55,970 bases of DNA from a bacterium (GCA_021777495.1 JAJYDL010000001.1:1-55970); one strand, 5' to 3'. Positions 21,503-48,457 are shown, numbered from the stretch's first letter. Numbers and translations: made by a program. The notes: generated by a model not told the origin, from the sequence alone.

Positions 21503-21778
21503 ATGCCGATAACCAGTTCAGCAAAGAAGGCTCTCCGCCAGAATACCACCCGCCGGAAGCGGAATGAGGCAAGAAAGGAGACGTATAAAAAAGCGGTGAA
21601 GGAATACCGCAAGCTCATCGTGGCCAAGAAGTTCGATGATGCCGCAAAAGCGTTTCCCGCGGTCTTCAAGGCGCTCGATAAGGCGGCCAAGACCAAGGTG
21701 ATCGAGAAGAACAAGGCAAGCCGCCTCAAATCGCGCCTCGCTCAGCTCACGAGCAGGTCCACCAAAGCCTCCTCGTAG
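21503..21778 (+). CDS. rpsT: 30S ribosomal protein S20
   Basis: MPITSSAKKALRQNTTRRKRNEARKETYKKAVKEY... is a typical S20. Confidence 0.92.
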   Translation: MPITSSAKKALRQNTTRRKRNEARKETYKKAVKEYRKLIVAKKFDDAAKAFPAVFKALDKAAKTKVIEKNKASRLKSRLAQLTSRSTKASS

Positions 21779-22533
21779 TCTACCTTCCCCGATTTCACCG
21801 CCAGGTCATACTCCGCCATGTGCGGAGTTTTTTCTTGCCACTGCGCGGCAAGGATGTTGAATATCTTCGCCGGAGGATCCGCGAGGGCGAGCATCGATTC
21901 GAGCGCATAAAGGCGGTTCCTGAGATCGTAACTCTTGAGGCCGTTCATGAGCGCCCAATAATTGGGGGCGGTCTCGAGCCCCAATCCCCCGAGGTCGTCC
22001 TTCCCGATCGCGCCGCCGCGCCCGTCGGCGAGCGCCACGATCTTCTCGAGCTCCGTCACAAGGCCCCACGTATTCCCGTGAAACACATTCGCGAGAAACT
22101 GCGCCGCGGGAGGGGCGAGATCCACGCCGCGCTCCTTCGCCTCACTCTTCACGAACGCGGCCCACTCCGCCCCTTCGAGTATCCTGAACTCCTGGGCAAG
22201 CGCGGGCTTCTCGAGCAGGAACGCGAGGGCCTTCACCGGCTTTTCCCGTTCCGCAATGAGCACCGTAGCGTCCTTCGTCTCGAGGAACGGCCCGAGGAAC
22301 CTCGCGAACTGCTTCGCCTCGAGCTCGAACGCATTCGCGAGCACCGCAAGCCTCGGCGCATCGAAGAGCGACCGCGCCGCAAGGAATCGCGCCGCTTCCT
22401 CGGGCGCCGCCTTGTTTTCAAAATCAAATTCCGCGAGGCCGATATTCGATCTCTTTTTCACGAACTCATCCACGACCGCACGCCGCTTCGCGGTGCGCCG
22501 ATAGTCGTCCGGTCCGTACAGGAACACGATCAT
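21742..22533 (-). CDS. holA: DNA polymerase III subunit delta (HolA-like)
   Basis: MIVFLYGPDDYRR... has length and pattern typical of compact HolA. It overlaps rpsT convergently by 37 nt. Confidence 0.75.
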   Translation of the reverse strand: MIVFLYGPDDYRRTAKRRAVVDEFVKKRSNIGLAEFDFENKAAPEEAARFLAARSLFDAPRLAVLANAFELEAKQFARFLGPFLETKDATVLIAEREKPVKALAFLLEKPALAQEFRILEGAEWAAFVKSEAKERGVDLAPPAAQFLANVFHGNTWGLVTELEKIVALADGRGGAIGKDDLGGLGLETAPNYWALMNGLKSYDLRNRLYALESMLALADPPAKIFNILAAQWQEKTPHMAEYDLAVKSGKVDYEEALVDLLVS

Positions 22534-22551
22534 ACTGTAAGAATAGGGGGT

Positions 22552-22560
22552 TTATCCACA
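22552..22560 (+). promoter_or_regulatory. perfect DnaA-box-like 9-mer TTATCCACA
   Basis: GGGGGTTTATCCACA lies in the holA/22620 divergent intergenic region. See the paired boxes at 33.3 kb and 48.4 kb. Confidence 0.4.
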
Positions 22561-22619: not shown

Positions 22620-22949
22620 ATGATCCCCTATACCCCCATCCCGGAAGAGATCCGTTCGGCCACCTTGCGCGACGTGTTCGCGTTGCACAACACCGCGCTC
22701 AATATCAGGCAGCATTTCCAGTTCGATAAAAGCTTTCAGAAGGTCGGCGCATGGATCAATCTCGGCTGTCCCAGGGCAAAATGGAACGAGATGAAGAAGG
22801 ATCTCCAGCACATCGCAGGCCGCCTGCGGAGCTTCGGCAATCTTTCCGAAAAAGAACGCGCCGCCATGCAGCGGCTCTTCGAGGAATCGATCAAACCCGA
22901 GCCCGATTTCCGGCGCATCCGGATATGCTGGTCCTACGTCGACATCTAG
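22620..22949 (+). CDS. hypothetical protein
   Basis: GAGAGGAG SD precedes ATG 22620. The protein is 109 aa (MIPYTPIPEEIRSATLRDVF...) and a terminator lies downstream. Confidence 0.65.
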   Translation: MIPYTPIPEEIRSATLRDVFALHNTALNIRQHFQFDKSFQKVGAWINLGCPRAKWNEMKKDLQHIAGRLRSFGNLSEKERAAMQRLFEESIKPEPDFRRIRICWSYVDI

Positions 22950-33293: not shown

Positions 33294-33335
33294 TATATCC
33301 CATGTTGTCCACAGAAAAAGGCGGGGTTATCCACA
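33292..33335 (-). promoter_or_regulatory. promoter region with paired DnaA-box-like repeats
   Basis: TATAAT (minus strand, 33297-33292). TTGTCCACA (33305-33313) and TTATCCACA (33327-33335) lie 22 nt apart start to start. Confidence 0.5.
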
Positions 33336-33375
33336 CCCTATGCAAATCCTTCCTTTTCCGTCCGGGAATCCCCCT

Positions 33376-34578
33376 TTATTTGTATCTGATGGCCTCGAGC
33401 GGACTTATGGATGAAGCCCTGCGCGCCGGGAAAATCCCCGTAATGAAGCCTACGATCGCCGAGAAAAGCGTGATAAACCCGAGGAATGTGAGGGGAAAGG
33501 CGAAAAGCGCCACCGCAGCGCCGCCGAAGTGCGTTGCCAATAGATTCAATAGATAATTGATGATGAGACCTCCGGCGATGCCTATGGCCATCCCCGTCAT
33601 GCCCCCCAGGAACCCGACCACGACCGCCTCCGCGAGGAAAAGGAACTGGATATCGCGGGGCGAACCGCCGATCGTACGCATGACGCCGATCTCCCCCGTG
33701 CGCTCAAGGAGCGTCACCGTCATGGTATTCACCATGCCGATCGCCGACACGATGAGCGCGATGCCGCCGAACCCTGCAAGGACCCATTGGACGCCGGTGA
33801 AGATCTGATTCGCCTGATCCACCGTCTTCGAGAGCGCCGACACCACATACCCATCCTTCACGATGGCGGCCTGGACGCCGCCGAGATTGCCGCTCGCGTT
33901 CACGCGCACCTGGACCTTGTCGTATTGCGGGATCCCCACCTGCGAGGAAAGCGTGGCAAGGGGAATCATCGCATAGATGGAGGCGCTGTCGTTCGTCACC
34001 CCCGTCACGGTGAAGTTCCCGTTCAGGGGCACCTGCTCGCTCTGCCCCCCGCCCTGCGCCTGCGTCACGATCCGGAACGATACCGGCTTCCCGATGATCG
34101 CCTTCGGATCGCTCACGCCGAAAAGCTGCAGCGCGGCGCTCGAAAGGATGACGTCGTTCGCATCCGAAGGCTGGTCGCTGAACTGGCTTCCTGCCGCCAT
34201 GGAAATGCCCGCGTATTTGAAATACGACGCCTGCGCCCCCTCGAGGTCCGTGTTCGCCGAAAGGCCGTTGTAGGTGATGAGCGACTGGAAGGTCGCGAGC
34301 GGCGATACGTCCTGGACGTTCGGGATCGCCTTGAACTTCGCAAGCGCGTTGTCGTCGAGCGTCACGGCGCTCGTTGCCGGCGGCGTAACGGTGAGGCTGA
34401 GGAGCGTATCGCCGAACACGATCTTCTCGAGCAGGATGTTCTGAAGGCCGAAACCGAGACCTACGAGCATCACGACCGCGGCGGTACCCACGCCCATGCC
34501 GAGGATCGTAAGCCATGTCCTTGCGGGATTGGTCTTGAACATCCTCGTGGAAAGCTTCAATGAATCGGCGACTCTCAT
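33376..34578 (-). CDS. ABC transporter permease, MacB/FtsX-like
   Basis: The N-terminal TM helix is followed by an extracytoplasmic domain of about 230 aa and then a C-terminal 3-TM FtsX domain. Confidence 0.88.
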   Translation of the reverse strand: MRVADSLKLSTRMFKTNPARTWLTILGMGVGTAAVVMLVGLGFGLQNILLEKIVFGDTLLSLTVTPPATSAVTLDDNALAKFKAIPNVQDVSPLATFQSLITYNGLSANTDLEGAQASYFKYAGISMAAGSQFSDQPSDANDVILSSAALQLFGVSDPKAIIGKPVSFRIVTQAQGGGQSEQVPLNGNFTVTGVTNDSASIYAMIPLATLSSQVGIPQYDKVQVRVNASGNLGGVQAAIVKDGYVVSALSKTVDQANQIFTGVQWVLAGFGGIALIVSAIGMVNTMTVTLLERTGEIGVMRTIGGSPRDIQFLFLAEAVVVGFLGGMTGMAIGIAGGLIINYLLNLLATHFGGAAVALFAFPLTFLGFITLFSAIVGFITGIFPARRASSISPLEAIRYK

Positions 34579-34597
34579 GGTAATAGTATAGAACGGT

Positions 34598-35908
34598 TCA
34601 GAGATACATGCCCTGCCCGATGAGCTTCTCGAGATACCAGCTCACGTGCCGCGCGGTATCGGGATCGAGGCCCATGCCGTCGCCCTCAAAAGGAGACTTG
34701 AGGCGGCGACGGAAATCCTCGGACTGGATGAATCCCCGGATGCGGAACTTGAGGAGCTCATCCATGCGCGCAATGCGCTCCGGCGGGATGCGGAACCCGC
34801 ACTCCCGCATGAGATCCTCGCGCACCTCGGCGATGCGGTCCCCCTGGCGCAGCGAGGCCACTTTTGCGGTGAAGTTATCCCGGTATGCGCGGATGTCCCG
34901 CGCCTCTTTGAGCACGATATTCAGCTTTTCTTCGAACATTTCCGCACGATGACGATCGATCTCCGGACCTCCTTCGTCCACGGACCTCGTAAGCCTGTCC
35001 ACAAACCCTTCATCCGTGAGCTTTCCGTCGATGAACATCCCGACCGTCCGTTCCAGCTGTTCGATCTGGTCGAAACCGATGTCCTGGGTGAGGAAATTCA
35101 CGACGCTCTTCACCCGCAGCTCCTCCGGCGACGCATACGGATAGATGCGCGCAAGCTTCTCGATCTCGGAAAGGATCGACGTCCCGGGGTCCACCTGCTT
35201 GATCTGTTTCTTCTCCGGGTTCACCACCTCGCGCTCCACGCCGCCGTCTTTCATGTGATAGACGCGGTGCGCATAGGGCAGCAGCTTCGCGTCATGGGTG
35301 ACGAGGATGACCGTCTTCTGCTGCTTCATGTTGATCTCCTCGAGCATGCCCATCACCTGGTCCGCCGACACGCTGTCGAGGTTGCCGACCGGTTCGTCGG
35401 CGAAAAGGATCTCCGGGTCGTTGATGAGCGAGCGCGCAACGGCGACGCGCTGCTGCTGGCCTCCCGAAAGATCCGTCGAGCGCTTGTGCGCCTGCTGATC
35501 CACGCCGAACTGTTTGAGCAGCTTCATTGCCCGCGCATACCGCTCCGCGGGCGGCACGTTTGCGAAGATGAGCGGGAGCGCGACGTTGTCGATCACGCTG
35601 AGCGACGGAATGAGGTTGAACGACTGGAAGATGATGCCCACCGTCTCCCTTTGGAACCGCACCATATCCTTCACGCCGTACTTATAGGGATTCTCCCCCT
35701 TCACGAGGATCTCCCCGGACGACGGCGGAAGAATGCCGAGCAGGCTGTAGAGCAGCGTCGATTTCCCGCAGCCCGAAGGGCCGAACAGGATGATATATTC
35801 CTTGGGATAGATCTCCAGGGTCTCCCCGCGCAGGGCATTGTATTCGTTCGACTTGCCCTGATTGTAGATGACTTTGATGTTATTTACCTTGATGATCGGC
35901 TCGAGCAT
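34598..35908 (-). CDS. ABC transporter ATP-binding protein (MacB/LolD type) with a C-terminal extension of about 210 aa
   Basis: Walker A GPSGCGKST, signature LSGGQQQR, Walker B ILFADEP. A helical extension of unknown family follows residue 225. Confidence 0.9.
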   Translation of the reverse strand: MLEPIIKVNNIKVIYNQGKSNEYNALRGETLEIYPKEYIILFGPSGCGKSTLLYSLLGILPPSSGEILVKGENPYKYGVKDMVRFQRETVGIIFQSFNLIPSLSVIDNVALPLIFANVPPAERYARAMKLLKQFGVDQQAHKRSTDLSGGQQQRVAVARSLINDPEILFADEPVGNLDSVSADQVMGMLEEINMKQQKTVILVTHDAKLLPYAHRVYHMKDGGVEREVVNPEKKQIKQVDPGTSILSEIEKLARIYPYASPEELRVKSVVNFLTQDIGFDQIEQLERTVGMFIDGKLTDEGFVDRLTRSVDEGGPEIDRHRAEMFEEKLNIVLKEARDIRAYRDNFTAKVASLRQGDRIAEVREDLMRECGFRIPPERIARMDELLKFRIRGFIQSEDFRRRLKSPFEGDGMGLDPDTARHVSWYLEKLIGQGMYL

Positions 35909-35918
35909 GGTGGTTCTC

Positions 35919-37400
35919 TTATTTTTTGGCGCCCCCCGAGAAGTTTCCGAGCCATCCGAACGTTCCCTGGAAGTTCTGCAGGATGATGTCCACGATGCTT
36001 TTCTGCTGCTGCGGCGTGAGGAGCACGTAATCCTCCGAGCTTGTCGTATTCCCGTCCACGTCGGTACAGGTAACCCAATATTTATAGACCGTCGCGGGAG
36101 AGAATGTCGTGACGACCTCCACGTGCTTCGTGACGGGGACCGTCTCCGCCGTCGTCGTCACGACATCCGCGCCGGCCCCGCTCGAATACGAAAGGAAGCA
36201 CGTCGCGGGCTCGTCGGTCGCCCACGAGATGACCGTCTGCACGGTGGTATCCTGTCCGGGGTAGAGCGTGGAATCGTTGCTCACCTGCGAGATCACCGGA
36301 GGATAGAGGTTCTTCGTCGTCACAAAATAAACGGGGTCGCTCTTCACCGTATCCCCCGCCTGGTTCTGGGCGACAATGACGGCCGAATAGCGCGTCTGAT
36401 AGACGAGCCCCGAGATCTGGAGAATGTGCGTCGTGAGGTACGATGGGTCGCCGATCGAAAGCGATTTATTGGTCGCCATGTCGGTGTACACGATCTCCCC
36501 CGCCGACGGCATGGGCGTGCCCCAGCTTATCGTGACATCATGCTCGCCGACCGTCACCACGTGAGGATTGATGATCTGCGGCAGAACGGATTTCGTCGTG
36601 AAGGTGAGATCCGGGCTTTCTCCCGGCGCGCCGATCCCTCCCGCGCGCGAGGACACCATGTAGTGATATTCCGTGGAAGGCGAAAGTCCATAGATCGTCA
36701 CCGTGTGCGTCTTCCCCTGCCCGTTCTGGTCCGTTTCCTGCCGCGGATAAGGGTTCGCGCTCGAAGGGTTGTACTCCGCGGCAGAAGCAATGAACACGGT
36801 GCCATCCGCGCTCTGGTCGGTGTTCCAGGTCACCGTCACGTTGTCCGTGCCGATCGTGAGCTGGGGCACGCCCAGAATGTTCGGCGGCCCGATGTTCGCT
36901 TTGGCCTGCTGGTTCAGCGCCCCCGCAATCGCCTCGAGTGCCTGGGTGCTCGTGATCTGCTGGATGATCGAGAGCGCCTTTGCCGAAAGCTGCTGCTGCT
37001 GCGGATTCGTGATGCTCGAGAGGGTCGAAAGATCGACGGTGCTCGAGGTCGTGAATGTATAATCGCCGGAGACGTGCTGGTTGCCGTTCGCGTCGGTGGA
37101 ACGGATGCGGAAATAGTACGTCGTCCCCGGATCGAGGTTCGGAATGACGACCGAGTGCTGGGTGCCGAGGGGCCCCTGATTTCTTATACCGCAGTAGTTC
37201 GTGTCCTGGCTGAAATTCACGAAACTGTCGGTGTTGGAGTCCGTGGTCCACGTGACCGTAGTCGAGGTCGCAGTCACGCCCGCAACGGCCACGTTCGAGA
37301 TGTTCGGCGACGTGTCCGCGAGCGCCCGCACGACGACCGCCGCGGACACAGCCGCGGCGCCCGCAAGGACCCCTATGGCGAACAGCGAGCGCGCGTTCAT
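35919..37400 (-). CDS. secreted protein with four FN3-like repeats
   Basis: Four repeats of the type TVTWTTD...Y.FRI.S.D..GN....DYTFTT. ATG 37400 (MNARSLF) lies 6 nt downstream of TGgTATCAT; the track start is 37418. Confidence 0.85.
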   Translation of the reverse strand: MNARSLFAIGVLAGAAAVSAAVVVRALADTSPNISNVAVAGVTATSTTVTWTTDSNTDSFVNFSQDTNYCGIRNQGPLGTQHSVVIPNLDPGTTYYFRIRSTDANGNQHVSGDYTFTTSSTVDLSTLSSITNPQQQQLSAKALSIIQQITSTQALEAIAGALNQQAKANIGPPNILGVPQLTIGTDNVTVTWNTDQSADGTVFIASAAEYNPSSANPYPRQETDQNGQGKTHTVTIYGLSPSTEYHYMVSSRAGGIGAPGESPDLTFTTKSVLPQIINPHVVTVGEHDVTISWGTPMPSAGEIVYTDMATNKSLSIGDPSYLTTHILQISGLVYQTRYSAVIVAQNQAGDTVKSDPVYFVTTKNLYPPVISQVSNDSTLYPGQDTTVQTVISWATDEPATCFLSYSSGAGADVVTTTAETVPVTKHVEVVTTFSPATVYKYWVTCTDVDGNTTSSEDYVLLTPQQQKSIVDIILQNFQGTFGWLGNFSGGAKK

Positions 37401-37461
37401 GTTGTTATGATACCACACGCCGCGGCGGCGTTCCGCGCCGCACCCATCCCTCCTTCGCTCT

Positions 37462-39519
37462 TTACGGCCACGGCAACGGGAGCTTCACGCCGACAAACGA
37501 ATTCATTCCCGTATATGTGGTCGCCATCTGTCCCGCGGGGATCGCGATGCCCCAATAGAACGTGGAGCTTTCCACCGTGGTCGTGGATACGGGCTTCGGA
37601 AGATCGATCGCCACCGTCGATCCCGGGTTCGGGAGCAGCGCCGTCCCCGACGCATAGGATATCGCGGAGGTCGCGAAATGCTGCTGTCCCACGGGAATGC
37701 TGAACGAGCTGTTCACCATGTTTGTGCCATAAAGATCCACGTTCATCGCAACGTTCCCCATCGACTGGATCACCGCCGTAGGGCCGAGGCTTGCGGTACT
37801 CGAGCCCTGCGTCAGATTGCCGTAATTTATCGTCGAGGTCGTTTCGAACGCGAGAAGCGAAAGCAGCGGCACGCCCGTCGAAGAGGCCGTGCCCGTGGCG
37901 CCCGCGGAGTCCACGGCGAGCATCGAGGCCGACCAGGAATCCCCCGCCCATGGCGTCGATGCGTCCGTCGGCTGGGCGAAATACCAGACGTGGAAACTGC
38001 AGGTTACGTTGCAGGATGTTCCCGCACAGCCGCTGAACGAACAGTCGCTCGGCGCACCTTGATAGCAATCGTTCGGATCGGGTGTGCATGCCGGCCCGAG
38101 GCTCGTGCGATAGAGCGTGCTCGTCACCGTCTGGATGTCGGTAAACCCGTTACCGTCGCTCACCGTTGCCGTGGCCGTGATGAGCGTCGTCGTCCCCTCG
38201 ATAAGGGCGATGCTCTGCCCCCCATTCAGGCTGACGGGGCCTATCGTCGGAGGAACATTTCCGATGGTGACTTCCGGATATGCGGCATAGGACGCAAACG
38301 GCGTACCGTTTGATTCCACGGCCCGGAAGCAGAACGTGGATCCTCCGGGCGCGCTGTTGTCGATGAGCGCGAAGTCCCACTTCCCGTCCTCTCCCGGAAG
38401 GATCGCGCCCTGCGAGTTCGTGAAGGTGTTCGCCTCCACATAGGTCTGATTCACGATGGTGTTTGTTCCGTCGACGGGATCGGTCGACGTAGGTACGAGC
38501 GGATCCCCGTTCGCGGGGGTCGGGTTGTTATAGAACTCGATATACCCCGTCGAGGTCGCCACATCGGCGTACGCCCCCGTCGGTGCCGCGCATGTTCCCG
38601 TTCCCATGTCGGCCATCTGCAATTTAAATGAGCGATTTCCCGCGGCGAGCTGGTTCGTCGCCACATTGACGAGCATGCGGAGGCGGAAAGGCGCCGTAAG
38701 CGATGCGAGCACCGTCGACGCGTTCTGCAATGCGAGCGGAGGCCCCACGCTCGCGCTGTCCGTATTCGAAAACCATCGGAATGCGTTCTGGCTGAACGTG
38801 ATCTGCGCTTTGAAGCTCACGATCTGCCCTATCCATGCACCGGACGCCGCCGCGGTGCCGACGGTCGAATAGGTCCCCGTTGCGTTCACCACCCGGTCCG
38901 CGCCGCTGTAGGTTGCGCGCGAACCGTGACTGCCGTTCGCGTTCGAAAAATCGTTTTCTTTGGTAAAGGAGTTGCTCCACGAAGAAAATGTTGTTTGCGC
39001 AATGATCGTGGTGGCCGCGAAAAGCAGTTCGTCCGGCTGGACCGTCGTGATTGCCGCTCCGTTCGTCGCCGTACCCGTACCCGCTGTCGATGTCGCTTGA
39101 TCAAGGGGGTTTACTGCCGATAATCCGCTGTATTCATAAATATGGAGGCCCAACTGCAGCGAAGATGCCGTAGTCACGGTAACCGCGGTAGGCTCGCCGG
39201 TTCCCGCCACCTTATAAAATATCGCCTGGCTCGGAGTTCCTGCGACGTTGAGCGCCACCGACCATCCGGACGGCACATTGATCCCGGTATTTCCGCCTGC
39301 GCCAAGTACGGCAATGAGGAGGTCGCCCGCGGTAGGCGTCGTCCCGAATGTCGCGGTCACGGTGTTCGCGCCGCCTCCCGCGCTCGTATTGCTCGCCGTC
39401 TGGATGAGCGTCGTCGTGGCGCGCGCGAAGGGCCACAGTACGAACACGCGGCTCACCGCGAGCCATGCGAGGAGCAGGCCGGCAAGGACTATGCCGAAAG
39501 AATAGATGCGGCGCATCAT
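37462..39519 (-). CDS. large secreted surface protein, one adhesin-type module plus C-terminal tail type II (..YTGMNSFVGVKLPLPWP)
   Basis: 685 aa with a signal anchor. Module motifs are FRWFSNTDS, FRLRM, FKLQM, FCFRAV and YAAYPEV. The C-terminus is homologous to that of 31425-33293. Confidence 0.85.
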   Translation of the reverse strand: MMRRIYSFGIVLAGLLLAWLAVSRVFVLWPFARATTTLIQTASNTSAGGGANTVTATFGTTPTAGDLLIAVLGAGGNTGINVPSGWSVALNVAGTPSQAIFYKVAGTGEPTAVTVTTASSLQLGLHIYEYSGLSAVNPLDQATSTAGTGTATNGAAITTVQPDELLFAATTIIAQTTFSSWSNSFTKENDFSNANGSHGSRATYSGADRVVNATGTYSTVGTAAASGAWIGQIVSFKAQITFSQNAFRWFSNTDSASVGPPLALQNASTVLASLTAPFRLRMLVNVATNQLAAGNRSFKLQMADMGTGTCAAPTGAYADVATSTGYIEFYNNPTPANGDPLVPTSTDPVDGTNTIVNQTYVEANTFTNSQGAILPGEDGKWDFALIDNSAPGGSTFCFRAVESNGTPFASYAAYPEVTIGNVPPTIGPVSLNGGQSIALIEGTTTLITATATVSDGNGFTDIQTVTSTLYRTSLGPACTPDPNDCYQGAPSDCSFSGCAGTSCNVTCSFHVWYFAQPTDASTPWAGDSWSASMLAVDSAGATGTASSTGVPLLSLLAFETTSTINYGNLTQGSSTASLGPTAVIQSMGNVAMNVDLYGTNMVNSSFSIPVGQQHFATSAISYASGTALLPNPGSTVAIDLPKPVSTTTVESSTFYWGIAIPAGQMATTYTGMNSFVGVKLPLPWP

Positions 39520-39562
39520 GGTGTCATTTTACCACGCTTGCGCACGCGCCCGTCCCCTCTTC

Positions 39563-41491
39563 CTATTTCACCACAAGATTGAACTGGCAGAAATTGGGAA
39601 GGATTTTTCCGTCGGCTTGCCGCTCTTTATATATGACGATCACCCCGTAGGAACCCGGCACCGTCGAGGGTGCCACGGTAAGACCGATCGTATCGATCCC
39701 GGGAGGTCCTCCCGGAACGATGGTTCCGGTCACGCCCGCGGGCAACGATCCGAGGGCCGTTTCGTAAAGCGGCGCGGTTATGGGCGCCGGGGGAGGAGGA
39801 GGCGCCGGGGGAGGATACGCCCTCCCCGAAGAGGCCGCCGATGAGCTTGGCAGAACTTCCGGCGGCGCCTGCACCACCATGGAAAGGACATACGATGCGC
39901 TTCCGCCGGGATATGCCGCGTTCGAGAACGGGGTAACCGAGCACTTCTGCTGCGCCGAGGGATCGAACACGCTCTGAAGCGCGTCCGCGGGCGCCGACGA
40001 GGATACGGAGGCGGACGACGAGCTTTGCGCGAACACCGTGCTTGTCGCGGCAGTCTGGGCGGTGTTCGGATCTATCGTCCCATTCGGCGCATCGGCGTAA
40101 TCCACCTCGACCCCCAAAGCATCGAGATACACCTTCGGGGAATCCGTGGCATTCAGTCCGACGAGCGCCACCTGAAGATGTTGGAGTTCCTGCCATGAAT
40201 AGATCGGAATAGGATAGCGCGCCGTCTGCCAATTTCCCGCGTTCACATCCGCGACCGGCTGCCACGTGACGCCATCCGTCGAATACATGATGGCGAGGAA
40301 ATCTCCCGGAGCTCCCGGCGGGAGGGTGATATTCTGAAATGCCGAGGTGTTCATGGTGATCGGCGCGGGCACGGTCGTCGTCGAAGGAACTCCTTCCGTA
40401 AGCGAAGATGTGGCGACGGTGGTGGTTGCTCCGTTCGTGAATATTCCCGTTGCGGTCGCCGTCGTCGTTGCGGCGGGCATTAACGCAGGCGAACGCGATG
40501 ATGACGAAGCAATCTGCGCGGCAGGGACGGACGACGCATTCTCCGCAAACGCGATCGGGAAAATATTGAAAAGCCAGGAGGTTCCGGACGAAGATGCTGT
40601 TGCGGGGGCGGGGGCGGGAGTGGGAGTGGGCGTTGGCGCGGGGGCGCTTGTTGGAGTAGCGGTATTCGTGCCTGCGGAAGGAGCGGTCGAGACCGGAGCG
40701 GGAGCGGCGGTTTGGGACATATCGGTGCTTGCGGAAGCAGGAGCGGAAGTCGAGGAAGAAGATACCACGACCGGGGCGGGAGTCGGAGCGGACGCGGACG
40801 TCGCCGTCGTACCGCTCGTCGTGGATGCCTGGCGCGGCGACTCCGTCGACGTCGACGTCGACGACGTGGGAGCGCGCTCCATGATCGTTGCTTCCGTCGA
40901 GCTTGCGGCGAAGGAACTGCTCGTACCGGAACCCTCGGCCGTCCCCGTCGCCGCGGATGATGCCTGAGTGGAGGTCGCGGTGGAGGTCGCGATAGGAACG
41001 GCCGCCGCCGAACCTCCTCCCCCGACGGAAGGAACGGGTGCAACGGCCGCATACCAGGAAAGGACGAGCGTCGCGGACCGGAACTGCTTCGCTTCAAGAT
41101 CCGCGATGTTCGTCTGTCCCGAGAAATTGCCGCAGAACATCTGCGCACCGCCCGTCGAGAATACCGCGGAATTGAGGGGGGTGAATGCCGATGCGGGCGA
41201 ACCGGGCGGAACGCTCGGCGCGCCGAGCGCGTTCTGCACGTTGTCCCACGAGCCGAGACACGACGAAGGATAGAAGTCGGCGGTGCTTGCGAACCCTATC
41301 ATGAAAGAATACGCGAACCCGCCCGCCGCCAAAACCCCGCACATCGCAAGAAACCACGCCTTATTCCTTTTCACGAATGCGCGGATGCTCCGCGCGCTTA
41401 TCTCGAACTGGACGCGGTACGTCCGTTCGCGGAGCATCACCGTCCCGCCCCGGGAGCGTGCGCGTATATCCGTAATCTTTTTCCGCTTCAT
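39563..41491 (-). CDS. membrane-anchored mucin-like protein (S/T/A/P-rich low-complexity stalk of about 300 aa)
   Basis: N-terminal TM helix (AWFLAMCGVLAAGGFAYSFMIGF). Long run ATSTATSTQASSAATG...PTPTPTPAPAPATASSSG. ATGA overlap with the upstream gene. Confidence 0.8.
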   Translation of the reverse strand: MKRKKITDIRARSRGGTVMLRERTYRVQFEISARSIRAFVKRNKAWFLAMCGVLAAGGFAYSFMIGFASTADFYPSSCLGSWDNVQNALGAPSVPPGSPASAFTPLNSAVFSTGGAQMFCGNFSGQTNIADLEAKQFRSATLVLSWYAAVAPVPSVGGGGSAAAVPIATSTATSTQASSAATGTAEGSGTSSSFAASSTEATIMERAPTSSTSTSTESPRQASTTSGTTATSASAPTPAPVVVSSSSTSAPASASTDMSQTAAPAPVSTAPSAGTNTATPTSAPAPTPTPTPAPAPATASSSGTSWLFNIFPIAFAENASSVPAAQIASSSSRSPALMPAATTTATATGIFTNGATTTVATSSLTEGVPSTTTVPAPITMNTSAFQNITLPPGAPGDFLAIMYSTDGVTWQPVADVNAGNWQTARYPIPIYSWQELQHLQVALVGLNATDSPKVYLDALGVEVDYADAPNGTIDPNTAQTAATSTVFAQSSSSASVSSSAPADALQSVFDPSAQQKCSVTPFSNAAYPGGSASYVLSMVVQAPPEVLPSSSAASSGRAYPPPAPPPPPAPITAPLYETALGSLPAGVTGTIVPGGPPGIDTIGLTVAPSTVPGSYGVIVIYKERQADGKILPNFCQFNLVVK

Positions 41492-43317
41492 CGCTTCTCT
41501 TCCTCCCCCTCGTTCAGCGCGCGATCGACGTCGTCGATCTCCTTCGCGATGGTCGATTCGGAGATCGCAAGCGCGTTCCTCATTGCATCGAGCACGTTTT
41601 CCGGCTCGAGTTTTATCTCCCCCTGCGCCGCCGCGGCTCCCCCCTCCATATGATTGATCTGATCGTCCACCTCCTCGCGCAGCGCCTCGAACACCGCCTT
41701 CGTCTTCTGGCGCACATCTTCGTTCTCCCGCCTCGCAAGCGAGACGTGGATGTCGTTTATCTTCTTCTTATAGAAGCCGTACGTCACAAGCCCGCCGATG
41801 AGCGAAAGGAGCAGGACGATGATGATCCATCCGAACCGGTCGAGGAACGGCGCCGCAAGGATGTCCATCGGCGCCGCCGCGGTCGTGCTTGCGAACGCGC
41901 CCTGCGTCGTGACCATCGATACGACGAGCGTGTATTTCCCTCCGGGAAGGCCGCCCTCCAGCGCATAGAGCCAGTGCCCCGTCGCGTCCGCCACCATCTT
42001 CCCCTCGGACACCGTCTTTCCGGTCGAATCATCGATATCAAGCGTCACGTTCGCGCCGCTGTCCGCGACGCCTTCGATCACGATGGGAGATTGCTCGACC
42101 GCCGCCGCCGGGAAGTTCGTGATCTCCGGGCTTCCGATGCCCGATATCTGGAACTGGCCGTCGGCCTCCGTACTGTTGCCCGCCTTGTCGACCGCGAAGA
42201 TCGCGACCGTGTGCTTGCCCGGCAGGAGCGGCGGGGCGGTATAGACCCCGCTCTGCAGATCGGACAGCGCGATCGTCGTCGATGCGCCTCCGTCGAACAC
42301 CGATTCGTAATGGTCCACGCCCGAAACCGTATCCGTCGCGTTGAACGCGATCGTCGTCCTCCCGGAGATCCCGGCGCCCGGCGTGATCGTAAGCGTGAAC
42401 GGCAGCGGGGGCGTGAGGTCGATCTGCACCGGCATGGTCATGGGGTCGCTCCAATCGCCGAGCGCATCCTCGAAGCGCACGTGGAAATACCATACGCCCT
42501 CCCCGATGTTTGAATATTGCTTGCTCGAAATGAGCCCTTCCGAAGTCCTTTTCGGATATGTATTGGGATTCTTGTCGAATGCCGTGCTCACTCCCGCAAT
42601 GTCGGGCGTCAGCTTCCATGAAAATGAAGGGTTCGGGTTGCTGTACCACTTCGTGGGATCGGGATGCGTCGGCGAGGCGATCGTCACCGAGGGCGTGAAC
42701 GAAGAAGGCGTGCTCGCGGGCTGGGATGCCTGCACCGACGATCCGCCGCCTCCCTGATTCGCCGAAGAAGCGGCCTGGTTCGCGGACGAAGGCGCCGGCG
42801 GCGCGGATGCCGTGAGGGTGAACGTGGCACCCGTCGTCCCCCCGAGAGCGCTCGTCCCCTGGCCATCCGCCGCAAGCGCGTCCGCGGATGCGAACTGGAG
42901 CGCCGCGCTCCCCGTCTTGAGGACTTTGAACGTGACGTCGAACACATCGCCGGCGTCCCCGGTGTAGGCGCTGTTGCTCCCCCCGCTGAAGTTCACCGTG
43001 CCGTCCGTGTTCGAGAACGAAGGGTCGCTCACCCAGAGATTGAATACCGAATTCCCCTTCGAGACGCTTTCCGCGGCGAGCAGCGTGGGATCGAACGTGA
43101 TCTTGCCGTCGGCGGCATTCACCCCCACGCCCCCTCCGCTCGCAAGCATGACGCTCACGGTGAACGTCTGTCCGACGGCATACGAACCGCTCGCCGGCGA
43201 GATGGATAACGACGCTCCGCCCGCGGCATTCGCCTGCGGCGGCGGAACGAGGAACGCCGCCGCAAGGAACGCGGCGGCGCATATGCTACTTGCCAGCCTG
43301 ATCCCTGGGTGTTTCAT
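41488..43317 (-). CDS. cohesin-like domain plus Ig-like domains, C-terminal TM helix and a cytoplasmic coiled-coil tail
   Basis: Signal peptide MKHPGIRLASSICAAAFLAAAFLVPPPQANA. Cohesin-type region SISPASGSYAVGQTFTVSVML...VNAADGKITFDPTLLAAESV. TM helix WIIIVLLLSLIGGLVTYGFY. Confidence 0.8.
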   Translation of the reverse strand: MKHPGIRLASSICAAAFLAAAFLVPPPQANAAGGASLSISPASGSYAVGQTFTVSVMLASGGGVGVNAADGKITFDPTLLAAESVSKGNSVFNLWVSDPSFSNTDGTVNFSGGSNSAYTGDAGDVFDVTFKVLKTGSAALQFASADALAADGQGTSALGGTTGATFTLTASAPPAPSSANQAASSANQGGGGSSVQASQPASTPSSFTPSVTIASPTHPDPTKWYSNPNPSFSWKLTPDIAGVSTAFDKNPNTYPKRTSEGLISSKQYSNIGEGVWYFHVRFEDALGDWSDPMTMPVQIDLTPPLPFTLTITPGAGISGRTTIAFNATDTVSGVDHYESVFDGGASTTIALSDLQSGVYTAPPLLPGKHTVAIFAVDKAGNSTEADGQFQISGIGSPEITNFPAAAVEQSPIVIEGVADSGANVTLDIDDSTGKTVSEGKMVADATGHWLYALEGGLPGGKYTLVVSMVTTQGAFASTTAAAPMDILAAPFLDRFGWIIIVLLLSLIGGLVTYGFYKKKINDIHVSLARRENEDVRQKTKAVFEALREEVDDQINHMEGGAAAAQGEIKLEPENVLDAMRNALAISESTIAKEIDDVDRALNEGEEEKR

Positions 43318-43888
43318 CCGAAATTTCTTTAACCGAAAGCTTCTTTCCCTCTCCCGGACGTTTCGCGGGCAATACGATGCGGAGCACGCCCCGTTCAAGG
43401 GATGCGTCCGCCTCTCCGGCGTCGAACGGCGCGGGGAGATATACTTTCCGATACCACCTCTTCCACTTCGTCTCCTGTTTCACGTACCTTCCTTTTTCGT
43501 CCCGGTCGCCGTCCTTCGCTTCGGAAAGCGGAGGCGGCGCAGGGCGTTTCTGTTCCGCTTGGATCGTAAGCGTGTTCTCCTCCTCGCTCATCACGATCTC
43601 AAGACCGTCCCTTGCGACACCGGGCAGCTGCGCCACAATGACCATCCGCGCATCGGATTGAAAGAGGTCGATATCGAGAGGCTCCATCCCGTCGGGCGGG
43701 ACGTTGTCCGCCGGGTCCACCGCGATGGACACCGGAGGGGTTCCGGGGCGCTGCGATTGATCGACGCGCTCGCCGGTCGCCTTGAACGACGCCGTCCTCG
43801 AGGTCGCGGATGGCGCCGGCGCGGCGGGAACCGCATCGGGATTCACTTCGTTCAATTTGCTTTCGAGCTTCTGGTAGAACGAGAGCAT
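43286..43888 (-). CDS. Hsp20/alpha-crystallin family protein with a Pro/Ala-rich N-terminal extension
   Basis: ACD pattern DLFQSDARMVIVAQLPGVARDGLEIVMSEEENTLTIQAE ... YRKVYLPAPFDAGEADASLERGVLRIVLPA. Confidence 0.85.
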   Translation of the reverse strand: MLSFYQKLESKLNEVNPDAVPAAPAPSATSRTASFKATGERVDQSQRPGTPPVSIAVDPADNVPPDGMEPLDIDLFQSDARMVIVAQLPGVARDGLEIVMSEEENTLTIQAEQKRPAPPPLSEAKDGDRDEKGRYVKQETKWKRWYRKVYLPAPFDAGEADASLERGVLRIVLPAKRPGEGKKLSVKEISDETPRDQAGK

Positions 43889-43925
43889 ATTATATCTAAG
43901 TATAGCACACCCTCCCGCCGCTTTT

Positions 43926-45620
43926 TCATCCCGTCCAGTTATACAGCATGATACTGAGGTCGGGGAGATCGATGACGCCGTCGCCGTTCAGGTCCCCCGG
44001 GGGCCATGCCTCCCCCCAGTGGAAGAGAAGAATGGAAAAGTCCACGAGATTCACTTTGCCGTCGCCGTTCAGGTCCCCCCTCCCTCTCGGTTTGGGGGCG
44101 GTGCCCACGCCAAGATAGGACACGCTCGAAAACGGACTCTCCGTATATGCGGGAAGGGACGATCTCGCTTTGATCTGATAGGTGTCGGTCGGGAATCCCG
44201 CGGTCGCAAGGCCGTAGGACCATGCCCCCGCCGCATCCGCGGTCGTGGTCGCCGTCACGGGAGCCTGCGCGCCGCTTTGGCTCGTCACCACGATCTCCAC
44301 CGTGGAGGATGGCTCGGCGACGCCCGATATCGTTGCGGTGCCGCCGATATTCACCGTACTTGTGGTAAAAGAGATCCCCGGCGGGAGCAGGATATTCGTG
44401 ATCCGGTTCGTCGTCCCGGAAATGAGCGTGATCGTTGCCGTATATGAGGCGATCGCGGCGCCGCCCGCGCCGTTCTCGACGAGCGTGAACGAATAGGTTC
44501 CCTCCGGCAACGGCGGAATGGTGACCGAAAAATTTCCCATACTGTCCGCGATCGTGGAAGCGCTCGGCAGCGAAACGCCGTCCTCAAGCACCGAGATGTT
44601 CACGTTCGGAAGCGCGACGCCCGAAATGGAAAGGGCCGGCTCCGAGGGGCCTGCGGGATACGGCGCACCACCTCCTCCCCCGCCGCCACCTCCGCCGCCT
44701 CCGGAATAGGATTGACCCGGCGTTCCGCCGCCCAGCCCGGTGCCCGTCGGATCTCCGGCGGCGAAAGAAATGACGTAATCGCTCGCATCCACGTTCCCCG
44801 TGAAGTCCTCGCAGCGCACATAGAACGTGTAGGTGGTCCCTTTGGTGATGCCCGTGATCGTCGTGTATTGAAATGTCCCCGTGTAATCGCTCGTGAATGT
44901 TCCCGTCATCGCGCCATAACTCACCCCGGAGGATGTCGCATATCGGCAGGTGGAATACGTATTGGTATCGAACGAAACGACCACGCCGAGCACGTTCGAA
45001 GGGATCGTTCCCGTCGGCAGGGCATTCGAAAGGACGGGCGGCGTGTTGCTGTATTGGTTCACGTCAACGCCGACCGCGGGGAGGATCGCCACCATCGCCG
45101 CACCGTAATCGATCGCGGCGCCTGCCGCCGTGTCCGTGTTGAGGAATATCCGGTAGGATGCCGTCGACGACGGATTGGTTATCTCATACCCCCCCGCCAT
45201 CCCGAGAACCACCTTCACGTACGCCCCCGCGGGGATCGCATTCCCCGACGGCATCGTAAGCATGATCGGCCCCGTTCCCGGCACGATGGACGCGCCCACA
45301 TTCGATGCGTTCGCGGAAGGCCCCACCGTCCACGGCACGAATCCCCCGGTCGGCGATGATGTGGAGACCGCAAATGAAATATCCGTATAGTTAAAGGAGG
45401 GATTGAGCGAGAACGCATCGTTTTCGAACGCAACAATTGCGGATCCCGATGCGGGAATGCCGCCGGGCACCCCGAACACAATCGTGTGGGTCGTCGGCCA
45501 TGAAGGACGCGAATCCCCGATCGTATCGCTCACGGGGGACATGACCGCGGCGCGGACAAACGAAGGAAAGGCGAACGCGCAGATCCATGCCGCCGCCGAA
45601 AACACCAGAAATCGTTTCAC
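43926..45620 (-). CDS. secreted Ig-like repeat protein with poly-Gly linker and C-terminal dockerin
   Basis: GTG start and signal peptide KRFLVFSAAAWICAFAFPSFVRA. G11 run. Dockerin DLNGDGKVNLVDFSILLFHWG...DLNGDGVIDLPDLSIMLYNW. Confidence 0.85.
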   Translation of the reverse strand: MKRFLVFSAAAWICAFAFPSFVRAAVMSPVSDTIGDSRPSWPTTHTIVFGVPGGIPASGSAIVAFENDAFSLNPSFNYTDISFAVSTSSPTGGFVPWTVGPSANASNVGASIVPGTGPIMLTMPSGNAIPAGAYVKVVLGMAGGYEITNPSSTASYRIFLNTDTAAGAAIDYGAAMVAILPAVGVDVNQYSNTPPVLSNALPTGTIPSNVLGVVVSFDTNTYSTCRYATSSGVSYGAMTGTFTSDYTGTFQYTTITGITKGTTYTFYVRCEDFTGNVDASDYVISFAAGDPTGTGLGGGTPGQSYSGGGGGGGGGGGGAPYPAGPSEPALSISGVALPNVNISVLEDGVSLPSASTIADSMGNFSVTIPPLPEGTYSFTLVENGAGGAAIASYTATITLISGTTNRITNILLPPGISFTTSTVNIGGTATISGVAEPSSTVEIVVTSQSGAQAPVTATTTADAAGAWSYGLATAGFPTDTYQIKARSSLPAYTESPFSSVSYLGVGTAPKPRGRGDLNGDGKVNLVDFSILLFHWGEAWPPGDLNGDGVIDLPDLSIMLYNWTG

Positions 45621-45632
45621 CTTATTATGGTA

Positions 45633-46061
45633 TCACGCCGCGGTCGGCGTTTCCTTCCCCTGCTCAGGGCCTCCCCTCCATTCCCCGCGCTCGCGGCGCG
45701 CGCCAAGATGGAAACTGAGCCCCGCGAAAAACGCGAGGACCCCTATCACAACCATGAAATACCACGGTATCGCCGCGGGCGATGCGGATCCTCCCGTCGT
45801 CGTCGCGGATGCAAGCGCGGCCCTCTGCGCCGCAAGGTCGGCGGCCTCCATATCGAGCTGGGTCTTCTCCTGGCTCAACTGCGCATTCAAAGTATTGTAG
45901 GGATTCGGCGCGACGCCCACGACCACGCCCACCTGCGCGAGCATGCTCTTCGCCGGAGCAAATCCTTCCGGCATGCGCGCGATCATAAATATGCTTCCGG
46001 CGACGACCGTTGCGGCCGCCGCCATGAGCATCGTTCCCATCCTTCCTTTTGGCATGTTCAT
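45633..46061 (-). CDS. small two-TM membrane protein with a central coiled-coil segment
   Basis: 142 aa. TM helices MLMAAAATVVAGSIFMIA and WYFMVVIGVLAFFAGLSF. Confidence 0.65.
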   Translation of the reverse strand: MNMPKGRMGTMLMAAAATVVAGSIFMIARMPEGFAPAKSMLAQVGVVVGVAPNPYNTLNAQLSQEKTQLDMEAADLAAQRAALASATTTGGSASPAAIPWYFMVVIGVLAFFAGLSFHLGARRERGEWRGGPEQGKETPTAA

Positions 46062-46074
46062 GCCGGGAAAACCG

Positions 46075-47187
46075 CTATCCGAAGAAGAAGAACAGGATCA
46101 TCAGGAATATGACCGCGAATACCACCGTCGCCACGAGTATGAAGATGAGGCGCGAGAACGGAAGCCTCCCTTCGGCGAGAAGACGCTCCTCGGCGGAGAC
46201 CGATGCCGCGGCACCCTGACGTCCGTCGGTCATTGCCGCGATCTTCTTTCTTACATACGCCCGCACGCCCCAGATGAAGCCGAACACGACAAGCAGGAGG
46301 ATGATGAGGAGCGCGAGGATCGGCACGATGGGGATGATCCAGAACGAGGTTTCCTGGGACACCGTCTTTTGGGCATTGTCTCCGTAGGTGAGCGACATCA
46401 CCGCATCGAACCGTCCCATCATGAACCCTCCGCTCGTCCAATTCACCGTGAACGTCCGGTCCTGGCCCGGGAAAATGGCATCGTTAGAATCGTTCATGAT
46501 GACCGTCCCCACCTTCTGCCCGAACATGTTCGTAATATCGATCGGGCCGCGCGGGCGAAGCAAAACGTTTCCGGTGTCGGCGACGTCCGCCCCGAACGTC
46601 ACGTTCGCGTTCTGATAGAGGCCCTTGTCCGTCGAGAACGAGCGGATCTCCGCCGTCTCATTCGCCTGTCCCGCAATCCTGAAGTCGAGAAGCGAGCCGA
46701 CCTGGTAGCCGATGCCGGTTCCCGTGAACTCCGGACGCGTTGCGCCGTAGGTCACGAAAATGGCGCCATAGTGGCCGCCGGGGGCGGCAGTCGAGGGGAC
46801 GTTCACGGTGAAGGGCACCGTCACGGATCCTCCCGCAGGAATGGTGATGGTGGGATTCTGCACGCTTACCCACGAACTTATCCCGTATTCGGGAACCGAG
46901 GAACTGGTGAATTCCGGCTCTCCGCCGCTATTAAGGCCCGATATGTCCTTCACGCTCACGGTGTAGGTGCGCGACACGGCATCCGGATTCGTGACGGTGA
47001 TCGAGGTGGAGAACTTATCGCCGGGATTCACGATCTGCTGGAAGATCGCGGGCTGAACTTTGACTCCCGTCGCGTCGGCGCCCGGAGTCCCGGGGGCGGA
47101 CTGCGCAAATGCAATTCCTCCGATAAGGACCGCGGCGGCCATGCCGGCGAGGACCGCTCCCCATGCCTTTTTCTTCATTACATGCAT
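46075..47187 (-). CDS. CscA/DUF916-DUF3324-like surface protein with C-terminal TM anchor (paralog 2)
   Basis: Signal peptide and the motifs GGHYGAIFV, DTGNVLLRPRGPIDITNMFG and FWIIP followed by a TM helix. Confidence 0.8.
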   Translation of the reverse strand: MHVMKKKAWGAVLAGMAAAVLIGGIAFAQSAPGTPGADATGVKVQPAIFQQIVNPGDKFSTSITVTNPDAVSRTYTVSVKDISGLNSGGEPEFTSSSVPEYGISSWVSVQNPTITIPAGGSVTVPFTVNVPSTAAPGGHYGAIFVTYGATRPEFTGTGIGYQVGSLLDFRIAGQANETAEIRSFSTDKGLYQNANVTFGADVADTGNVLLRPRGPIDITNMFGQKVGTVIMNDSNDAIFPGQDRTFTVNWTSGGFMMGRFDAVMSLTYGDNAQKTVSQETSFWIIPIVPILALLIILLLVVFGFIWGVRAYVRKKIAAMTDGRQGAAASVSAEERLLAEGRLPFSRLIFILVATVVFAVIFLMILFFFFG

Positions 47188-47225
47188 CGTATCATGCCCC
47201 GACGCGCCCTTTCAAGCCGGATGGC

Positions 47226-48359
47226 TTAGAAGGTCGGCGTTGCAACGTAGATCAGGTTGTTCGTGTAGTCGTTCGCGGCAGGCTGCAGCGTACCGATCTC
47301 GATGCGGTAGGCGACCTTCGCGGTGCCCACGTTCTGCGTCGTGCCGTCGGCGGGACCGTTCCATGCGAACACGGTGAGCGTGGATGTCGGATTGATGCTT
47401 CCGGCGTAGAGCGGCGTGCTCGTGCCGAAGCTCGGTGCGCCCACGAGAGAACTGCTTGCGTCATCGCTTGTCACGCCGAGATGGCCGTATGTCGCAGGCT
47501 GGTTGATGATGTTGCTCGGCGCAGCCCACGGACTCGGCGTGGACGTGGCGTTGCCGTTATCGAAAAGATGGATGGTGTTCCCCGTCTGGCTCGTAAGGTC
47601 CTGGTCCTCGTGGACCGTCACCGCAAAGCCGTTCGCGGCGTTCGTCGTCACATACAACTGCTGTCCAAGCTCGGCGTGGGTGTTCGGCGAGATGATGCCG
47701 AAGGGAACCGTGGTAGAAGTGGATGCCCCCGTCGTCGTCGCGCCGTTCCCGAGCGTCGTGGATGTCGCAAGCCCCGCCACCGTGAAGGTGAAGGTTGTGG
47801 CGACCGCAGCCGTCACATTGACCCCGTTCACGATCGCGACACGGGTTGCCGCGGAATTCGCCCCCGCCGCAACGTTTATCACATAGGATCCGGTGCTCGT
47901 CGGGTTCGTGATCGTATTATTCAAAACCTTAAGGGTGACCGTTCCTGCGGGGATGGTCGCACCGCCGCAGACGGTGAATACGAGCGAATTCGTGGTGGTT
48001 GCCAGGCTTACGTTGGTACCTCCGTTGCTGCAGGTATATCCGGCAATGGTCATTCCCGTGGAGGTAACATCCGCAATCACTACTCCTCCTACGTTGCCGA
48101 ATGCACTCGTCGTGGGATCGAATGTATAGGTGATCGTCTGACCGCTTACGGTACTCGTCGAATCGGTGAACGCTATTGTGTGGTTCGCCGCAAACCCCGG
48201 GCGGGAATCGGACAATGTGTCGCTCACTGAGGTAAGGCTCACCGCGTGGGCCGTGCTTATGAAGCGAAGCATCGTGCTCCACGAAACGAGGCTTACGATC
48301 AAGCCTGCCGCGACCGCGATTACGACATCACGTTTTATCATCGTCCTTTTGCTGAACAT
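47226..48359 (-). CDS. secreted protein, C-terminal tail type I (..DYTNNLIYVATPTF), WxL-analogous
   Basis: 377 aa with a signal anchor. The C-terminal domain (PFGIISPN...TNAANGFAVTV...YTNNLIYVATPTF) is homologous to the C-terminus of 50604-54749. Confidence 0.85.
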   Translation of the reverse strand: MFSKRTMIKRDVVIAVAAGLIVSLVSWSTMLRFISTAHAVSLTSVSDTLSDSRPGFAANHTIAFTDSTSTVSGQTITYTFDPTTSAFGNVGGVVIADVTSTGMTIAGYTCSNGGTNVSLATTTNSLVFTVCGGATIPAGTVTLKVLNNTITNPTSTGSYVINVAAGANSAATRVAIVNGVNVTAAVATTFTFTVAGLATSTTLGNGATTTGASTSTTVPFGIISPNTHAELGQQLYVTTNAANGFAVTVHEDQDLTSQTGNTIHLFDNGNATSTPSPWAAPSNIINQPATYGHLGVTSDDASSSLVGAPSFGTSTPLYAGSINPTSTLTVFAWNGPADGTTQNVGTAKVAYRIEIGTLQPAANDYTNNLIYVATPTF

Positions 48360-48410
48360 GGGATACTCTTTATTGAAAGAGGGGTTTGCTTTTTTATTCG
48401 ACTTGTATTC

Positions 48411-48457
48411 ATTCTATCACAACAGGTTGTCCCCATTACAAGGGGTACTTATCCACA
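48411..48457 (-). promoter_or_regulatory. promoter region with paired DnaA-box-like repeats
   Basis: TGaTAGAAT (-10 at 48416-48411, minus strand). TTGTCCCCA (48427-48435) and TTATCCACA (48449-48457) lie 22 nt apart start to start. Confidence 0.5.

Follow-up and report, generated by a model that had tools for sequence, protein, structure and literature searches.

A 55,970-base stretch of bacterial DNA (GCA_021777495.1 JAJYDL010000001.1:1-55970), referred to here as the window, contains three intergenic sites carrying the DnaA-box consensus TTATCCACA. At two of them, in the promoters of genes for a 616-amino-acid (aa) and a 377-aa surface protein (sites A and B, respectively), a second and imperfect copy of the box lies 22 nt closer to the gene, and at the third, in front of the replication gene holA (site C), the box is single. 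These repeats are a real conserved regulatory site: they occur far beyond chance, have been maintained by purifying selection and keep their register among relatives. We consider it somewhat probable that the paired copies make up an operator of one strong and one weak DnaA box, which would couple expression of a cluster of surface proteins to the DnaA status of the cell.

The exact 9-mer occurs three times in the window (22552, 33327 and 48449, all on the plus strand), against 0.07 copies expected from dinucleotide-preserving shuffles, and none of 100 shuffles gave three copies. An initial annotation of this DNA had described the box as expected less than once, present at least three times and always intergenic, and all of this is confirmed (3/3 copies intergenic). 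The second copies that it placed 22 nt away, at 33305 and 48427, are also there: the pair TTGTCCMCA-N13-TTATCCACA is found twice (33305-33335 and 48427-48457) against 0.00 expected. When one mismatch is allowed, the box is not enriched in the window (6 seen, 4.43 expected), and further one-mismatch matches at 7044 and 10585 fall within the coding sequences of clpB and a transposase. Counting copies with up to one mismatch, no site in the window has more than two boxes.

Because nearly all genes in the window are carried by the minus strand, the sites are to be read on that strand. Read towards the gene, the paired sites take the form TGTGGATAA-N13-TGKGGACAA-N7/10-TAKAAT. Site A is TGTGGATAA-CCCCGCCTTTTTC-TGTGGACAA-CATGGGA-TATAAT-GAATAAAAATCCCTAC-ATG, site B is TGTGGATAA-GTACCCCTTGTAA-TGGGGACAA-CCTGTTGTGA-TAGAAT-GAATACAAG...ATG, and site C is TTGATT-T-TGTGGATAA-ACCCCC-TATTCT-TACAGT-ATG. 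The two -10 elements, and their distances of 7 and 10 nt from the proximal copies, are as initially annotated. Downstream of the -10 element, sites A and B have TAKAATGAATA in common; TAnAATGAA is a feature common to strong promoters of this lineage.

How well is this arrangement kept in related genomes? Orthologous loci (L numbers) were retrieved by exact-protein look-ups (L125-L128) and by one metagenome scan (L129-L180), and 15 upstream regions of orthologues of the 377-aa gene, here called B-type promoters, were aligned. The distal TGTGGATAA is invariant at 9/9 positions in all 15, with sequence 5′ of the box largely unalignable, flanks diverged and protein identity down to ~50-59%. The proximal element starts with TG in every case and matches the box at 6-9 of nine positions: it is TGTGGATAA itself in L144, TGTGGACAA in L136, TGTGGATGT in four lineages, TGGGGACAA in the window, and TGTGGAGTA, TGTTGACAA, TGTTTACAA, TGTTAATAA or TGTGCGCAA elsewhere. 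In all of them the boxes are separated by 12 or 13 nt, which gives a register of 21-22 nt, and the TTG within this spacer is invariant (T37 T38 G39 of the alignment). An extended -10 element, TGTTATGnTAnAAT, is conserved 10 nt past the proximal element. In a profile of box similarity by position, the peak is at +22 (5.5/9 against a background of ~2.3), with a weaker peak at -23; the proximal copies themselves, taken at +21/22, average ~7/9 against the same background. One B-type paralogue, the first in L125, has TTATACACA, which is the same as TGTGTATAA and fits TTATNCACA. In L147, upstream of a 54%-identical orthologue, four box-like 9-mers follow each other with an exact 11-nt period (48, 59, 70 and 81) and 2-nt spacers, the whole array (48-138) being AGTGGAAAA-gc-AGTGGATGA-ac-GGTGGATTG-ac-TGTGGATGG, then TCTGGATAA-N13-CGTGGACGC.

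The A-type promoters, those of the 616-aa gene, comprise the window, L057 from a genome scan and L184-L186 from look-ups (n=5). The perfect distal box is present in 5/5, a copy of the form TGGGGAYnn or TGTGGACAA lies 12-13 nt beyond it in 4/5, and all five have TAWAAT at exactly 7 nt from the proximal element. The proximal sequences of the orthologues are TGGGGACAA, TGGGGATAG, TGGGGATTT or GAAGGATGT. A more distant Azambacteria orthologue (L187, 49% identical) has AGTGGATAT only.

A third promoter of the same cluster carries the box in relatives. The cluster begins there with a gene that lies beyond the end of the window and whose product combines an HTH_17 domain with a membrane helix and a large ectodomain; the domain match is 27.1 bits (E=5e-6) in L125, and matches are weak in three of the four proteins. 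Its promoter has the form TTATCCACA-N21/22-TATAAT, with the box reversed. The distance between box and TATAAT is fixed in L125, L126, L127 and L132, whereas that to the promoter of a divergent HSP20 gene varies from 7 to ~83 nt. The first-gene promoter of L141 has two perfect forward boxes and three partial ones. The box is flipped also in L152, a 47%-identical B-type orthologue. Such flips (L152, the four genomes with a reversed box at the third promoter, and L141 with forward boxes) amount to a turnover that is typical of a transcription-factor site and not of a core promoter element.

In ~620 kb of non-redundant Paceibacterota DNA, 28 perfect boxes are intergenic against 1.25 expected, an enrichment of ~20-fold, and 8 are in coding sequence against 2.8 expected, three of which are really promoter sites; these counts come from crude gene calls, a sample biased toward the surface cluster and orthologues that are not independent of each other. 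The census sites reduce to four promoter families. Taken together, the invariance of the distal box in 15 B-type and five A-type promoters, the retained 21-22-nt register, the box at the third cluster promoter and the intergenic enrichment strongly support the common operator or activator site that was first proposed. Two other parts of that proposal have to be given up. A run of G does not always precede the box, being replaced in L181 (ATAAACGAAC) and in most B-type orthologues (CTAGACATTG and similar), and the motif extends beyond surface genes, since a sublineage has the holA site.

A perfect TGTGGATAA also occurs within the coding sequence for the C-terminus (..DVDKALN..) of a cohesin-domain protein in L126 (16902), L128 (16888) and L185 (1066). 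It is conserved there at the protein level and is missing from the orthologue in the window.

At site C the box is located in the spacer of a leaderless holA promoter (TTGATT-16-TATTCT), 6 nt upstream of TATTCT, which is followed by 6 nt and the ATG of holA. It is also 8 nt upstream of the -35 element (TTGCCG) of a divergent gene for a 109-aa protein. The box is identical in the close relative L181 and absent from L182 and L183, where holA directly follows pyrG. In ~62 kb around holA from three genomes, it is the sole perfect box.

What binds these boxes? Judged by the motif, the binder is most likely DnaA. DnaA is favored because the box agrees with its consensus at each of the nine positions and because the tolerated variants are known variants of the DnaA box. 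The consensus (TTATNCACA / TTATCCACA) is found in three exact copies in the window and is invariant in 20 orthologous promoters. TGTGGACAA is the same as TTGTCCACA, the DnaA-box consensus of high-GC Gram-positive bacteria, and both TTGTCCACA and TTATACACA fall within the known degeneracy of the box. Identity at 9/9 positions is very unlikely to arise by chance for an unrelated factor, and it is on this account that we put a DnaA-bound operator above one bound by another factor. One of the sites being the promoter of the replication gene holA also counts for DnaA. So do the 2-nt spacers between the four box-like 9-mers of L147, a spacing that E. coli DnaA prefers in vivo (PMC11317965). The box-N13-box arrangement is common in true DnaA territory of other phyla: it is found with dnaA inside the fetched stretch (up to 8 kb) at at least 19 loci, eight of which are without a middle box. 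A scan of genome contigs for the paired pattern returned at least 119 loci, which are mostly DnaA-box arrays of Actinomycetota, Chloroflexota and Bacillota and do not constitute a regulon census; the one useful orthologue among them is L057.

The layout resembles that of the Escherichia coli nrdAB promoter, whose core is preceded by high-affinity consensus boxes that can stabilize RNA polymerase, and where a weaker box becomes occupied only when DnaA-ATP is abundant and then shuts the polymerase out; nrdAB is activated at low DnaA and repressed at high DnaA-ATP (PMC8203912). In the window, likewise, the strong box is centered at about -46 or -49 and the weak box at about -24 or -27 from predicted starts, the distal copy matching at 9/9 positions and the proximal one, which ends 7-10 nt from the -10 element, at 7-8/9. 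The two cases differ in that the targets here are cell-surface proteins rather than genes of nucleotide metabolism, in that the host is an uncultivated bacterium of the candidate phyla radiation (CPR), and in that a gap of 13 nt, free of box-like sequence, separates the boxes (22 nt from start to start). By analogy, the strong box TGTGGATAA, which lies immediately 5′ of the -35 position (~-46 to -49), would be occupied by DnaA at all times, and at high levels of active DnaA the protein would cooperatively fill the weaker copy, two helical turns downstream within the core promoter (~-24 to -27); the DNA between the boxes, with its -35-like TTG, might then be covered as well. RNA polymerase may be helped when only the strong box is occupied and would be blocked once the weak box is filled; the sign of regulation in this scheme is inferred from nrdAB. 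Expression of the surface cluster (adhesin, cohesin and dockerin proteins; ~35 kb) would in this way be tied to replication or growth status. A bolder version, in which DnaA of these host-dependent bacteria with reduced genomes is the master switch of the whole ~35-kb adhesin and cohesin-dockerin apparatus through paired strong and weak boxes, two helical turns apart, at each operon promoter, so that surface display and hence probably attachment are hard-wired to the replication cycle, is in our view rather doubtful.

Several observations weigh against DnaA. In E. coli, chromatin immunoprecipitation sequencing in vivo has shown that DnaA needs a double box in the same orientation with 2-3 bp between its halves, that 1 bp more abolishes binding, and that the lone perfect box of guaB is unbound (PMC11317965; Stringer, Fitzgerald and Wade 2024). 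Those double boxes lie upstream of regulated genes and often combine a consensus with a degenerate member. The window pairs are similar in orientation and make-up, but with a 13-bp gap they break the spacing rule unless a third protomer bridges it; spacing of 2-3 bp is found only in L147, and the middle 9-mer at +11 is at background (2.4/9). Of the four promoter families, three come from a single gene cluster, a pattern more typical of a dedicated local regulator, and the holA box is restricted to a sublineage. DnaA does not explain the TTGAC(T/G)GCC conserved beside the box in many relatives. Paceibacterota DnaA would have to use this consensus, and the fetched loci include neither dnaA nor oriC of the lineage: tblastn with a B. 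subtilis DnaA query detected dnaA in 19 loci from other phyla but in none of the Paceibacterota loci fetched, and two Patescibacteria loci considered as possible origins (L056 and L086) showed nothing diagnostic. Finally, all box positions are relative to transcription starts that are predicted and not mapped.

Some of these points would suit a different transcription factor, an explanation that we regard as unlikely, if well short of negligible. It could be a response regulator of the OmpR/PhoB type on an 11/22-bp lattice, or the cluster's own membrane-anchored HTH_17 protein, regulating itself together with the cluster. These direct repeats follow a lattice of 11 nt (L147) or 22 nt, the proximal copy is 7-10 nt from a -10 element whose -35 partner is weak or absent, the box-bearing promoters are concentrated in one cluster, and the flanking TTGAC(T/G)GCC hints that the full site is longer and composite. 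PhoB/PhoP-type boxes are adjacent TGT-initial direct repeats on an 11-bp lattice, each with 6-7 conserved bases, ~10 nt before the -10 element of promoters with a poor -35. The repeats in the window are likewise direct, TGT-initial and ~10 nt upstream of -10, and some proximal variants even read TGTTTA or TGTTGA; but nine bases are invariant here, whereas response-regulator half-sites usually span 6-7 nt, the sequence is the DnaA consensus, which another factor would very improbably match by chance, and the neighboring copy is 22 nt away. The half-site expected at 11 nt is missing in the window, and a period of 10-11 bp is seen in L147 only, as against 21-22 nt in the window and most orthologues. 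An orphan PAS-HisKA-HATPase histidine kinase is encoded at 24754-26136, between the gene for a 5′-3′ exonuclease and pyrG, two genes from site C and in a syntenic position in L181 and L183; no response regulator or receiver-domain protein is found among the window proteins. The HTH_17 protein, with its N-terminal HTH_17 followed by a membrane helix, has the box at a fixed 21-22 nt from TATAAT in its own promoter, and against it stands the weakness of most of its domain matches. Either factor would also meet competition for its sites from DnaA, should the DnaA of this lineage be canonical.

That the boxes mainly titrate DnaA, as at datA or in the Bacillus subtilis clusters, and thereby buffer initiation with an incidental effect on transcription, seems very unlikely. 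In B. subtilis, clusters of consensus DnaA boxes lie outside oriC in intergenic promoter regions, and some of them control neighbors unrelated to replication (PMC3245932). The present boxes share this intergenic placement of high-affinity copies, and with a genome as small as ~0.9 Mb (contigs of 882 and 914 kb), even a small number of strong sites might be of consequence. However, the B. subtilis clusters have many boxes and are titration sites as well, whereas each promoter in the window has one or two boxes and not five or more; a group of at least 4-5 boxes within ~200-500 bp is not found in the window. The proximal copy keeps its 7 or 10 nt from the -10 element in all orthologues, which points to a constraint from RNA polymerase rather than titration, and the sites follow particular promoters even when flipped. 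Scarcely probable at all is the view that the repeats are core promoter elements, or sequence inherited by duplication with paralogous genes, with no dedicated regulator. Within the proximal copy there are indeed TGGACA or TTGACA-like hexamers, at site A a promoter scan predicts TGGACA-18-AAAAAT, and the sequence shared by sites A and B downstream of -10 could be a trace of duplication. Yet the proximal copy is too near the conserved -10 element to serve as -35, L184 and L185 do not keep TGGACA and AAAAAT, a -10 hexamer would need a T at -7 that is absent from the box, and most promoters in the window do without a box. Core elements, furthermore, cannot flip as the box does in L152 and the first-gene promoters. 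As for duplication, the proteins encoded at sites A and B have no detectable similarity, and TAnAATGAA is general in promoters of the lineage.

Some other identities for the motif were considered and rejected. The proximal copy is not a sigma-70 -35 element, its hexamer being 8-11 nt instead of 16-18 nt from the conserved TAnAAT, and TGGACA-18-AAAAAT is not conserved. LexA, which is encoded at 9252-10064, was rejected since neither CTGT-N8-ACAG nor the Gram-positive SOS box fits. Sigma-32 (CCCTTGAA), sigma-28 (GCCGATAA), Fur, TnrA and a MerR-type spacer palindrome were rejected by eye; partner elements are missing or unconserved.

Control of promoters by DnaA through boxes is well known already. 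What is new is the lineage, the target (a supercluster of surface-protein genes), the conserved 21-22-nt geometry of strong and weak copies, and the persistence of the link across many species; a literature search for papers connecting DnaA boxes with Patescibacteria or CPR returned none. Patescibacteria/CPR encode a very small set of transcription factors and rely on contacts with other cells. To our knowledge, almost nothing is known of gene regulation in them. A cis-element common to three promoters of the largest surface-protein cluster therein gives a regulon that is concrete and can be tested. Should DnaA prove to be the binder, this would be a clear case of the replication initiator controlling the cell surface in a minimal genome; if it is the membrane-tethered HTH protein, it would be a one-component switch that senses contact. 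In either case, the 31-bp sequence can be used to predict regulons genome-wide in the hundreds of metagenome-assembled genomes (MAGs) available.

The window is a contig of an uncultivated Paceibacterota (Parcubacteria, CPR) bacterium: its proteins have homologues assigned to Candidatus Paceibacterota, Parcubacteria or Minisyncoccia, and exact matches occur in the MAG assemblies GCA_021834285.1 and GCA_021834565.1. Its first 28 kb hold housekeeping genes (IF3, L20, PolX, ClpB, UDG, LexA, TruD, RNase J, PDF, a Mur ligase, RuvA, holA, CTP synthase, the orphan histidine kinase and the 5′-3′ exonuclease). The region 28179-55963 is a ~28-kb part of a conserved cluster, ~35 kb in full, of Thr/Ser-rich membrane-anchored surface proteins with cohesin, dockerin, fn3, Big and CopC-like domains; it also includes a WxLIP/fn3_5-like protein, an internal HSP20 (43286-43888) and a MacB-type ABC exporter (33376-35908). 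Gene order is the same in all relatives fetched, and the whole resembles a cohesin-dockerin assembly of the cellulosome style, here in a CPR bacterium.

The 616-aa gene is the first of an operon that also encodes CopC-like, dockerin and cohesin-domain proteins. Its product has more than 500 homologues, all from Parcubacteria/Paceibacterota, with a conserved MIVRW N-terminus. The start listed initially, at 33293, gave an open reading frame of 622 aa whose ATG overlaps the TATAAT of site A; that start is probably wrong, and the conserved ATG at 33275 (MIVRWIAWWKE; also in L057, L184 and others), which yields 616 aa, fits better. The 377-aa gene likewise leads an operon, followed by genes for the WxLIP/fn3_5-like protein, a dockerin protein, HSP20 and a cohesin protein. 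Its predicted structure is poor (mean predicted local distance difference test score 52.6) and gave weak matches to an Ig-like adhesin and BslA alone, so that the model supports a surface beta-sandwich protein at most. Coordinates are collected in Table 1.

Table 1. Sites, genes and associated sequences; positions refer to the window unless a locus is named
Feature	Position	Strand	Remarks
Site A distal box TGTGGATAA	33327..33335	-	Perfect DnaA-box consensus; predicted center ~-46 from putative transcription start
Site A proximal box TGTGGACAA, 8/9	33305..33313	-	Starts 22 nt past distal box; ends 7 nt before -10; predicted center ~-24
Site A -10 hexamer TATAAT	33292..33297	-	7 nt from proximal copy
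Site B distal box TGTGGATAA	48449..48457	-	Predicted center ~-49
Site B TTGTAA between boxes	48436..48441	-	-35-like hexamer, 19 nt from -10; putative role
Site B proximal box TGGGGACAA, 7/9	48427..48435	-	Starts 22 nt past distal box; ends 10 nt before -10; predicted center ~-27
Site B -10 hexamer TAGAAT, extended -10 TG before it (TGATAGAAT)	48411..48416	-	
Site C single perfect box	22552..22560	-	Between divergent genes
616-aa Thr/Ser-rich surface protein, N-terminal membrane anchor	31425..33275	-	Start moved from 33293 to 33275
377-aa surface protein, membrane anchor and Ig-like beta-sandwich	47226..48359	-	
holA, DNA polymerase III delta subunit, leaderless start	21742..22533	-	TIGR01128 E=1.4e-20; JGI homologue names agree
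Divergent 109-aa gene	22620..22949	+	No family match; orthologue in L181
Leaderless-type promoter examples	3289-3310, 5632-5650, 9209-9225, 22534-22546, 28128-28145, 39520-39540		
First-gene leaders	L125 2250-2485, L126 1413-1570, L132 ~900-1200, L127 2252-2321, L141 2090-2135		
TTGAC(T/G)GC(C/T) flank	L125 2379-2387, L126 1465-1473, L132 1026-1034, L127 2243-2251; L126 9845-9853, L136 6207-6215, L144 126-134		

The flank listed last in Table 1 lies directly 5′ of the perfect box in two promoter families and flips together with it. It is not box-like, and its distance is wrong for a -35 element. The leaders of the first gene have a common motif, AAATATCG-n-CCC-n-CGAGAT, and an inverted repeat, ACTCG-N5-CGAGT; the divergent HSP20 gene has its own promoter, TTGCGG-N17/18-TAYAAT.

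Leaderless-type promoters, in which an extended -10 element (TGnTAnAAT) is followed by 6 nt and the start codon with no Shine-Dalgarno sequence, are common in the window. An IS30-like transposase gene (HTH_38 and rve; 10262-11239) occupies the stretch of lowest GC content (0.553), with AT-rich intergenic flanks and the genes for LexA, UDG and PolX nearby. A scan of the window against Rfam found tRNAs alone. In other bacteria, three Chloroflexota loci (L070, L084 and L105) have box-N13-box followed by TAGAAT and a conserved CAAACCCGCGGCGAGACGGGTTTGCCAA, which has no Rfam match (tRNAs alone in a scan of the three loci), and in four Cupriavidus loci (L017, L069, L106 and L115) a box-N13-box pair lies in a block of ~60 nt that is conserved as a whole.

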